Shown here one piece after another: positions 33,013-34,342 of a stretch of DNA of 35,391 nucleotides. The notes under the pieces were generated by a model. It saw nothing but the letters and a program-made list of their open reading frames with translations. It did no database searches and was not told the DNA's origin. Each line of letters starts with the position of its first letter. Position 1 is the first letter of the stretch. Source of the stretch: a virus (lineage: Duplodnaviria > Heunggongvirae > Uroviricota > Caudoviricetes); IMG/VR virus record IMGVR_UViG_2778261298_000003. One strand, 5' to 3'. The translations under genes were made by a program, and so were the position numbers.

Positions 33013-34062
33013 TTACGCCAGTACGCCAATTGCCAGCGCGCGATCGATAAAACGAAATATCAGCTCCAGTTGGGAGCCATACTTATCTTCAAATGCCACT
33101 GTATCCGTATGCAGCTCGTTGTGATGCTTTCTGCACAAAGGCAACACAAAGAGATCATGTGCTTTTGTTCCCATTCCGCCCTGCCCGTGACCAATCAGAT
33201 GATGCGGATCGTCGGCTGGCATACCGCAGCAAGCACACGGCTGTGTCTTAACCCAACGTGTGTATTTCTCCTTAACCCAGCGGCGACGTTTAGGCAGCTT
33301 CATGAAAGATTCCGGAGACTCTGGATCAACGGTGATGCTTACCACCGTCTTTTCCTGTGGTGATTTTTGTTGCTGGTGGGCGTAAGGCAACGGTGCAAGA
33401 TTTTTTGTGCGTTGTTTCAATATGCTGGTGGCGGTCTGCTCTCCCGGTACGATGTCGCTTTCGCGGTACACCGAGCAGATTTTTTCCGCTGGTAATCCCA
33501 GCGAACGACGCGATACAGCCTCAGGTAGTGCATCCACCACCTGATTGCAGACCGCCCACCAGGATAATTCAGCCAAAGATAATTCCCGCTCCTGCGTACC
33601 GCTTATTGCGTGACGGATGACGTCAATCACCCATGCTGTCAGATTTTGTTGAGCAAGCAGCTCCAGTGATTCCGATGTCTGGTCACGCAGTTGGTTGTCG
33701 CAGTGCCAGCACAACACCATTGCGCCGGTACCATAACGGTGAATGACTGTTTCAGTGTGATGGTAATCGCCATTAGGCCACTGGCAGGATGTAACATGAC
33801 GTAATAGCCAGTCGGACAATGCGCCAACGCCGCCAGCAGCACGAATCACCCGTTCGTTACTAAAAAACGGCAGCAATGTTTTGTCTTCCGCCAGCGGCTG
33901 GCGAACGGCAGGAACGACTCCGGATGGCAGATTACGCATGCTTTTTGGTTCCGGTTCCACCAGCACTCGAGGATTATGAAATATCTGTATGGATTCACGG
34001 CCCGGCTTAAGGACCACCAGCCCAAGCTCAGGCACCAGAACAGGTCTAAGTAATACCCGCAC
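33013..34062 (-). CDS. ydfU: Uncharacterised prophage protein YdfU-like (DUF968) with Cys/His-rich C-terminal motif
   Basis: ORF-track frame to 34101 starts on GTG upstream of the rem stop; a GTG at 34060-34062 immediately after the rem stop gives 349 aa. C-terminal motif CACCG...HHLIGHGQGG...CRKHHNELH. Confidence 0.75.
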   Translation of the reverse strand: MRVLLRPVLVPELGLVVLKPGRESIQIFHNPRVLVEPEPKSMRNLPSGVVPAVRQPLAEDKTLLPFFSNERVIRAAGGVGALSDWLLRHVTSCQWPNGDYHHTETVIHRYGTGAMVLCWHCDNQLRDQTSESLELLAQQNLTAWVIDVIRHAISGTQERELSLAELSWWAVCNQVVDALPEAVSRRSLGLPAEKICSVYRESDIVPGEQTATSILKQRTKNLAPLPYAHQQQKSPQEKTVVSITVDPESPESFMKLPKRRRWVKEKYTRWVKTQPCACCGMPADDPHHLIGHGQGGMGTKAHDLFVLPLCRKHHNELHTDTVAFEDKYGSQLELIFRFIDRALAIGVLA

Positions 34063-34063
34063 G

Positions 34064-34342
34064 TTACCTCCAGATCCGTTGCTGGAAAGTGCGGGACGCA
34101 CGTGGTGGGCGTTCGGAATAAGGCAGCCTGACAGAGATTATCCAGTGCCGATAGTCGAGACTGAGAGCTTTCTTAACCTCGAACCCGCGCCTGCGGTAAG
34201 AATGAATCAGCCATTCGGCCTGTTCTGCAGTGCATGGAGGGTGCTGGAACCATTCAGACTTGAATGCGTGAGAATACCGCCCGTGCGTGCAGGCAAGAAC
34301 GGGCGAATTATCAGAATTGTAATATTTTGCGTTGCGTGCCAT
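34064..34342 (-). CDS. rem: Small prophage protein Rem-like
   Basis: 92 aa from an ATG at 34340-34342 with GGAGAAAA SD upstream (MARNAKYYNSDNSPVLACTHGRYSHAFKSEWFQHPPCTAEQ...). Confidence 0.8.
   Translation of the reverse strand: MARNAKYYNSDNSPVLACTHGRYSHAFKSEWFQHPPCTAEQAEWLIHSYRRRGFEVKKALSLDYRHWIISVRLPYSERPPRASRTFQQRIWR

Follow-up and report, generated by a model that had tools for sequence, protein, structure and literature searches.

YdfU, the 349-residue product of ydfU in the 35,391-nucleotide stretch of viral DNA analyzed here (IMG/VR record IMGVR_UViG_2778261298_000003; hereafter the window), is probably a two-domain phage DNA endonuclease of the His-Me finger type, which in a live phage would cut branched recombination or replication intermediates or stimulate recombination. 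This proposal draws on observed family membership, predicted fold, conservation and gene order, from which roles for individual residues, a substrate and a biological role are suggested. The HNH nature of YdfU is already known from Pfam, PHROGs and a classification paper, in which DUF968 and DUF1364 were placed together in His-Me finger group 7, YdfU of Qin (NP_416078) and YbcO (3g27) were named, RusA and Q were listed among the gene neighbors, and a role in recombination or repair was proposed for the group (Jablonska et al., 2017; PMC5714182). An HNH motif had been described earlier in proteins then under DUF968 (Curtis et al., 2014; PMC4118853). With the gene, the family and the HNH nature present in databases and literature, the discovery value is small; the additions made here are a second conserved Cys/His site in the N-terminal part of YdfU and a family of small open reading frames (ORFs) located directly ahead of three His-Me nucleases. 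In the 2024 y-ome survey, ydfU still figures among the uncharacterized genes, and a literature search found neither biochemical or genetic data nor a nuclease assay for YdfU or any DUF968 protein.

Over bases 32900-34700, the window is 100% identical to an E. coli chromosome, and 4920 of 5426 complete E. coli genomes contain related DNA, Stx phages included. According to the annotation of the identical RefSeq record and of K-12 MG1655, the region belongs to the Qin cryptic prophage, and the genes from relE to ydfT all lie on the minus strand. In the direction of transcription these are relE (35104..35391), hokD (34877..35032), rem (34409..34660; 83 aa, WP_000980993, b1561 in K-12), a gene for an unnamed basic protein of 92 aa (34064..34342; PGAP hypothetical protein WP_012304870), ydfU (33013..34062; 349 codons plus stop with a GTG start, DUF968 protein WP_001265198) and, after a gap of 13 nt, ydfT or quuQ (32247..32999), annotated as the Q antiterminator (Pfam Antiterm, 4.2e-54). 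As the preliminary description had it, ydfU is thus found between the toxin-antitoxin loci (hokD/relBE, 34877..35391) and Q, and it occupies the final slot of the early-right (nin) operon, immediately ahead of Q.

Other elements of the window are reported as side observations. A strong hairpin resembling an intrinsic terminator (AACCCGC-TTCG-GCGGGTT followed by a T run; 34791..34808, minus strand) lies just 3' of hokD, and a promoter-like site (34739..34768, minus strand) follows it upstream of rem; such sites are not more numerous in the region than expected from shuffled sequence. Three Rfam matches exceed the gathering score (31081..31473, 28185..28570 and 3342..3540, all on the minus strand), consisting of two cspA-type thermoregulator leaders, the first of which is upstream of cspB, and an IS009 RNA. 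Between the lysis genes and cspB sits ynfU (30563..30733, plus strand), encoding a putative zinc-binding protein of 56 aa with two CxxC pairs.

The mechanical ORF for ydfU opens at a GTG at 34101 and would give 362 aa, with the stop ending at 33013 on the minus strand. In an alignment of YdfU with 28 full-length relatives (26-80% identity), the start at GTG 34062 keeps its position in all 29 diverse homologues, which supports the protein of roughly 349 aa put forward at the outset. This start is preceded at 4 nt by a GGAGG Shine-Dalgarno sequence (34067..34071, minus strand, read from the sequence), situated within the final two codons of the upstream 92-aa ORF, and the two genes may be translationally coupled. 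Pfam DUF968 (PF06147) matches residues 173-359 of the 362-aa ORF with 256.6 bits against a gathering cutoff of 27.8 (1.5e-76), covering positions 1-171 of the 171 in the profile, and PHROG 96, "HNH endonuclease", matches over its full length (1-334 of 334; 2.8e-171). Since the DUF968 score is far above the cutoff and the residues concerned are conserved, the Cys/His pattern of this protein is not due to chance. Two further Pfam families score below threshold over the same Cys/His region, namely HNHc_6 (PF16784; 26.2 bits, cutoff 26.6) and RecA_dep_nuc/Ref (PF16786; 17.6 bits, cutoff 26.9). For this reason, YdfU was assigned neither to HNHc_6, known from Orf-HNH fusions of Gram-positive phages, nor to the Ref family, to which the likeness is structural only.

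When 1.84 billion representative proteins were searched exhaustively, 2885 relatives of YdfU were obtained at E <= 0.001, 96 of them at E <= 1e-30. Some of the homologue entries are oversized: P0001, P0007, P0010, P0107, P0145, P0189 and P0190 show in-frame internal tandem duplications or tail-fibre-like fusions after the N-terminal domain, and are probably assembly or rearrangement artefacts of prophage-rich genomes. These in-frame duplications and tail-fibre chimeras were not retained as natural architectures, and neither was P0002, a lone database entry of 438 aa in which the small ORF is fused to YdfU.

The C-terminal 75 or so residues of YdfU would form the catalytic module. The CxxC...HH...H-x3-H arrangement reported for this tail is indeed present, in the form PC276AC278C279GMPADDPH287H288...D303...PLC310RKH313H314NELH318, and from conservation and predicted fold the HNH/His-Me finger core can be placed at residues 276-318 (33109..33237, minus strand). 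Among 75 homologues covering the domain, drawn from clusters at 50% identity, C276 is conserved in 96%, C279 in 75%, the pair H287 and H288 in 91%, D303 in 96%, C310 in 84%, His or Cys at 313 in 79%, and H314 together with H318 in 88%. An AlphaFold2 model computed from the 29-member alignment has a mean pLDDT of 85.6, reaching 94-97 in the C-terminal core, where the beta-beta-alpha-metal fold of the His-Me finger/HNH superfamily is predicted; the general-base His at the end of strand 1 and the His/Asn/Asp ligands on the helix can be recognized across the 75 homologues. When the C-domain profile is aligned to a YbcO sequence with hhalign (E 1.5e-5), H288 pairs with the His of the YbcO "AH", and C310, H313 and H314 pair with its C-x2-C-H. 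On this basis, C276, C279, C310 and H313 would form a CCC[H/C] zinc site clamping the beta-hairpin to the helix, H288 would be the general base, D303 would stand in for the Asn of HNH enzymes, and H314 and H318 would bind the catalytic metal. Structure prediction and motif conservation were the checks that the preliminary description had proposed for this tail; a nuclease fold is predicted and the motif is conserved among homologues, so that neither of the objections it had foreseen applies, and its reading as a nuclease-type HNH or zinc-finger region is supported.

In a subset of homologues (P0164, P0182, P0203, P0223 and P0245), C279 (to T), C310 (to S, T or R) and H313 (to E, A or Q) are lost jointly while HH..D..H..H is retained. 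Judging from their sequences, these proteins are zinc-free variants of the YdfU core, and the persistence of HH..D..H..H beyond the zinc ligands suggests that the catalytic residues are more constrained, which argues for an active nuclease. It could be supposed instead that the HNH scaffold is purely structural and that YdfU is a non-catalytic zinc-finger protein with a DNA-binding or regulatory function. The HH pair is absent from the 3 most distant of the 29 full-length homologues, so that some members of the family may be non-catalytic; the N-terminal module resembles a beta-beta-alpha zinc unit that has degenerated and in which no catalytic His is conserved, and the members of group 7 include a protein annotated as a transcriptional regulator (Jablonska et al., 2017; PMC5714182). 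However, the catalytic His/Asp/His residues are better conserved than the zinc ligands and survive the loss of the zinc site, the opposite of what a structural-only role predicts, and a non-catalytic YdfU appears very unlikely.

The endonuclease proposed here would comprise, besides its C-terminal core, a domain of its own at the N-terminus (residues 1-195; 33478..34062, minus strand), which lies outside the Pfam DUF968 model. Modelled alone (pLDDT 88.3), it shows a small beta-sheet, a helical bundle and an embedded beta-beta-alpha unit. The latter carries a second Cys/His cluster, C93-Q-x6-[H/C]101 ... C118-W-H-[C/H]121-D122-N123 (33700..33786, minus strand), which in the predicted model is borne by strands 105-110 and 113-118 and helix 119-125. 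In 84 homologues, C93 is conserved in 98%, His or Cys at 101 in 96%, C118 in 99%, His or Cys at 121 in 99% and D122 in 80%, and the cluster may bind zinc. Its C-Q-x6-C spacing is the same as in YbcO. When the N- and C-domains of YdfU are compared with hhalign, their Cys/His positions line up, yet the match falls short of significance (E 0.077, probability below 1%), so that an internal duplication is not established; moreover, the catalytic His is not conserved in the N-terminal cluster. The resemblance to an HNH fold is weak and, while suggestive of a degenerate second His-Me finger-like zinc module, unproven. Scans of Pfam at E <= 10 with the single N-terminal sequence and with the 29 homologues individually gave noise only, and Foldseek returned no match at E <= 0.001 between the domain model and the PDB. 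As the N-terminal domain has no significant relative in sequence or structure, substrate choice cannot be read from it. Direct searches of PDB sequences with YdfU, the alignment profile and the N-terminal domain gave nothing useful either; the kinship with Ref and YbcO shows up solely when folds are compared or profiles are aligned with profiles.

The two domains are connected by a flexible, poorly conserved linker (residues 196-244; 33331..33477, minus strand), with pLDDT values of 42-69, falling below 50 at residues 228-240, and gap-rich alignment columns. It is followed by a basic arm ahead of the HNH core (residues 245-275, VDPESPESFMKLPKRRRWVKEKYTRWVKTQP; 33238..33330, minus strand), with a computed pI of 10.3 and a net charge of +4.7, in which K258 is invariant in the 29-member alignment and P257 nearly so. 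This arm may contact DNA and, together with the N-terminal domain and its four-ligand Cys/His site, would probably serve in recognition of DNA or of a partner.

The gene at 34064..34342 had been called rem and placed after ydfU. This identification is wrong: the ORF is the RefSeq hypothetical protein WP_012304870 and belongs to PHROG 1212 (1.7e-35, with a core at residues 27-92), rem is the gene at 34409..34660 (PHROG 340), and the small gene is transcribed ahead of ydfU, not after it. The tight packing that had also been noticed is real, as the TAA of the small ORF (34064..34066) ends 1 nt from the GTG of ydfU, and GGAGG falls inside its last codons. The correction is useful to anyone relying on the earlier label. 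The description of both genes as uncharacterized fits ydfU and not rem, since Rem was identified in 2023 as an antirepressor of DicA, its ectopic expression giving a 165-fold relief of DicA repression at the dicBF promoter and causing filamentation (Ragunathan et al., 2023; PMC10448788); the gene that was meant is in any event a different, unnamed ORF. In two phage records, the 92-aa ORF bears the label "toxin to Rem" and Rem itself the label "Antitoxin Rem" (L002:4001-4279, L003:4683-4934); no support for these labels was found in the literature, and they occur in these two records only. A toxin-antitoxin pair was not retained, given that Rem is an antirepressor and that the 92-aa ORF has no match in PADLOC, NCBIfam or Pfam.

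The 92-aa protein is basic (pI 10.2), and its gene has a Shine-Dalgarno sequence of its own, GGAG, 7 nt ahead of the ATG. Codon position 3 accounts for 201 of the 304 nucleotide differences among 19 alleles, a bias which indicates a real gene. In K-12 MG1655 (NC_000913.3) the DNA is identical, yet the 346-bp gap between ydfU and rem contains no annotated gene, and a conserved gene is thus missing from the reference annotation; in other genomes PGAP annotates it as a hypothetical protein. The family comprises 401 homologous clusters sharing a 66-residue core, none of them with a Pfam domain, and the best 120 of these 401 all come from enterobacterial genera. PdcA of P1, encoded by the small gene before pdcB, was considered as a homologue and gives no alignment.

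Members of this small family can be found directly ahead of several nuclease genes. In Gifsy-2 and in 69 of about 80 Gifsy-type viral contigs, the small gene is immediately upstream of NinG, and in mEp237 and E. coli prophages the order is DUF1367, small gene, YbcO, RusA, YlcG and Q. Of 19 loci in species-representative genomes, one is cut short by the contig end; at the other 18, the next gene is of the NinG type in 14 cases (two truncated), YdfU in 3 and YbcO in 1; as these neighbor samples are redundant and contain close relatives only, such counts describe gene order and not independent events. Other next genes are a RusA-like gene, a Cys-rich 158-aa ORF, a 223-aa ORF, PY54 ORF48 and, in one case, another small HNH gene. 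A DUF1367 gene is usually located just ahead of the small gene (L007:2504-2704, L008:2504-2704, L170:2501-2707 and L175-L193 around 3001-3198). The small genes linked to YdfU group apart in a long-form clade and have Rem upstream, the copies linked to NinG and YbcO are intermixed, and some YdfU genes have no small neighbor at all. The occurrence of the same small family before YdfU, NinG/Rap and YbcO places the three nucleases in equivalent positions and may reflect a shared accessory function, but it may equally be nothing more than gene order conserved within a mosaic nin region.

A bolder combination of these elements can be formulated, in which YdfU is a pseudo-dimeric tandem His-Me finger enzyme, with a degenerate, zinc-binding, YbcO-like N-module and a catalytic C-module, and the PHROG 1212 protein is an accessory or regulatory subunit shared by YdfU, NinG/Rap and YbcO. 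This would amount to an unrecognized two-component recombination-nuclease module of enterobacterial temperate phages, and we consider it speculative and unlikely. Genes of the YdfU type are so widespread that enzymology on one of them would annotate thousands, and it could also reveal whether the three alternative nucleases of the nin region and their small neighbor do the same job.

Regarding the distribution of YdfU itself, full-length homologues are present in 186 phage records, from phages of Escherichia (including Stx phages), Klebsiella, Salmonella, Yersinia, Serratia and Vibrio, and from P1. Lambdoid phages have it as the last or next-to-last gene before Q, as in Qin, 689R5 (with RusA between), Ayreon, mEp390 and a Klebsiella phage; RusA adjoins the homologue in 689R5 and mEp390 and is one gene further upstream in Ayreon. 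In other phages the same slot is held by NinG/Rap or YbcO, often with RusA. By analogy, this shared slot in the nin operon, together with the closeness to Ref and YbcO, would make a role in recombination or branch processing the best supported one, with the reservation that mosaic phage genomes may keep gene order without keeping function.

The homologue of P1, PdcB (26% identity over 91%), is also full-length, and its gene directly precedes the late activator gene lpa (L006:2905-3948), an order that echoes that of ydfU ahead of the late regulator Q; a literature search on pdcB returned unrelated topics only. HNH proteins act in packaging in HK97-like phages, where gp74 of HK97 assists the terminase. 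YdfU could by comparison be a packaging-associated HNH protein that helps the terminase to cut concatemers, and the location of pdcB about 0.6 kb upstream of pacA/pacB, with lpa alone between, would fit such a function. In the lambdoid phages examined, Qin among them, however, Q and the whole lysis cassette separate ydfU from the terminase genes, and ydfU belongs to the early operon and not to the late one, which leaves a packaging role highly improbable.

A different function, as a DNA-targeting weapon that degrades the DNA of the host or of competing phages in superinfection exclusion or anti-defence, can be considered in view of the surroundings of ydfU and of its silencing. A 2022 study places one of the strongest Rho-dependent terminators of E. 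coli upstream of ydfU and describes silencing by strong Rho terminators as suppressing toxic prophage genes; two toxin-antitoxin loci are nearby, toxins and defence effectors commonly contain HNH domains, and Cap5 and McrA are among the structural matches of YdfU. Yet YdfU matches no PADLOC defence family, no obvious immunity gene accompanies it, its nearest fold relatives, Ref and YbcO, are phage proteins of recombination regions, and in active phages the gene has RusA as a neighbor within the conserved nin/Q early-right operon and is not part of a moron or a defence island. A weapon is thus unlikely. Under the preferred reading of a recombination-related endonuclease, ydfU in Qin would be an intact but transcriptionally silenced remnant.

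With regard to known systems, YdfU is a named member of DUF968, His-Me finger group 7 and PHROG 96 and does not differ from them, although the Pfam DUF968 model spans the C-terminal half only and the N-terminal 170 residues are undescribed there. YbcO of the DLP12 prophage (DUF1364; PDB 3g27), for which no published enzymology was found, is a single domain of 96 aa with no direct match in the Pfam scan of YdfU; compared with it, YdfU has an additional 195-aa N-terminal domain, a linker and a basic arm. By predicted fold, the closest structural relative of the YdfU nuclease domain is Ref of P1, a RecA-dependent nuclease (PDB 3plw, PF16786), which has no counterpart of the N-terminal domain; P1 carries both Ref and, separately, the full-length homologue PdcB. 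NinG/Rap of lambda (PF05766) is a His-Me finger nuclease and a branch-specific endonuclease (Curtis et al., 2014; PMC4118853). Its domain layout differs from that of YdfU, no sequence similarity is detectable between the two, and YdfU gives no Pfam match to this family at E <= 0.1, so that genomic position alone is held in common: NinG/Rap occupies the equivalent slot just before Q and, in Gifsy-2-type phages, is preceded by the same small gene family as YdfU.
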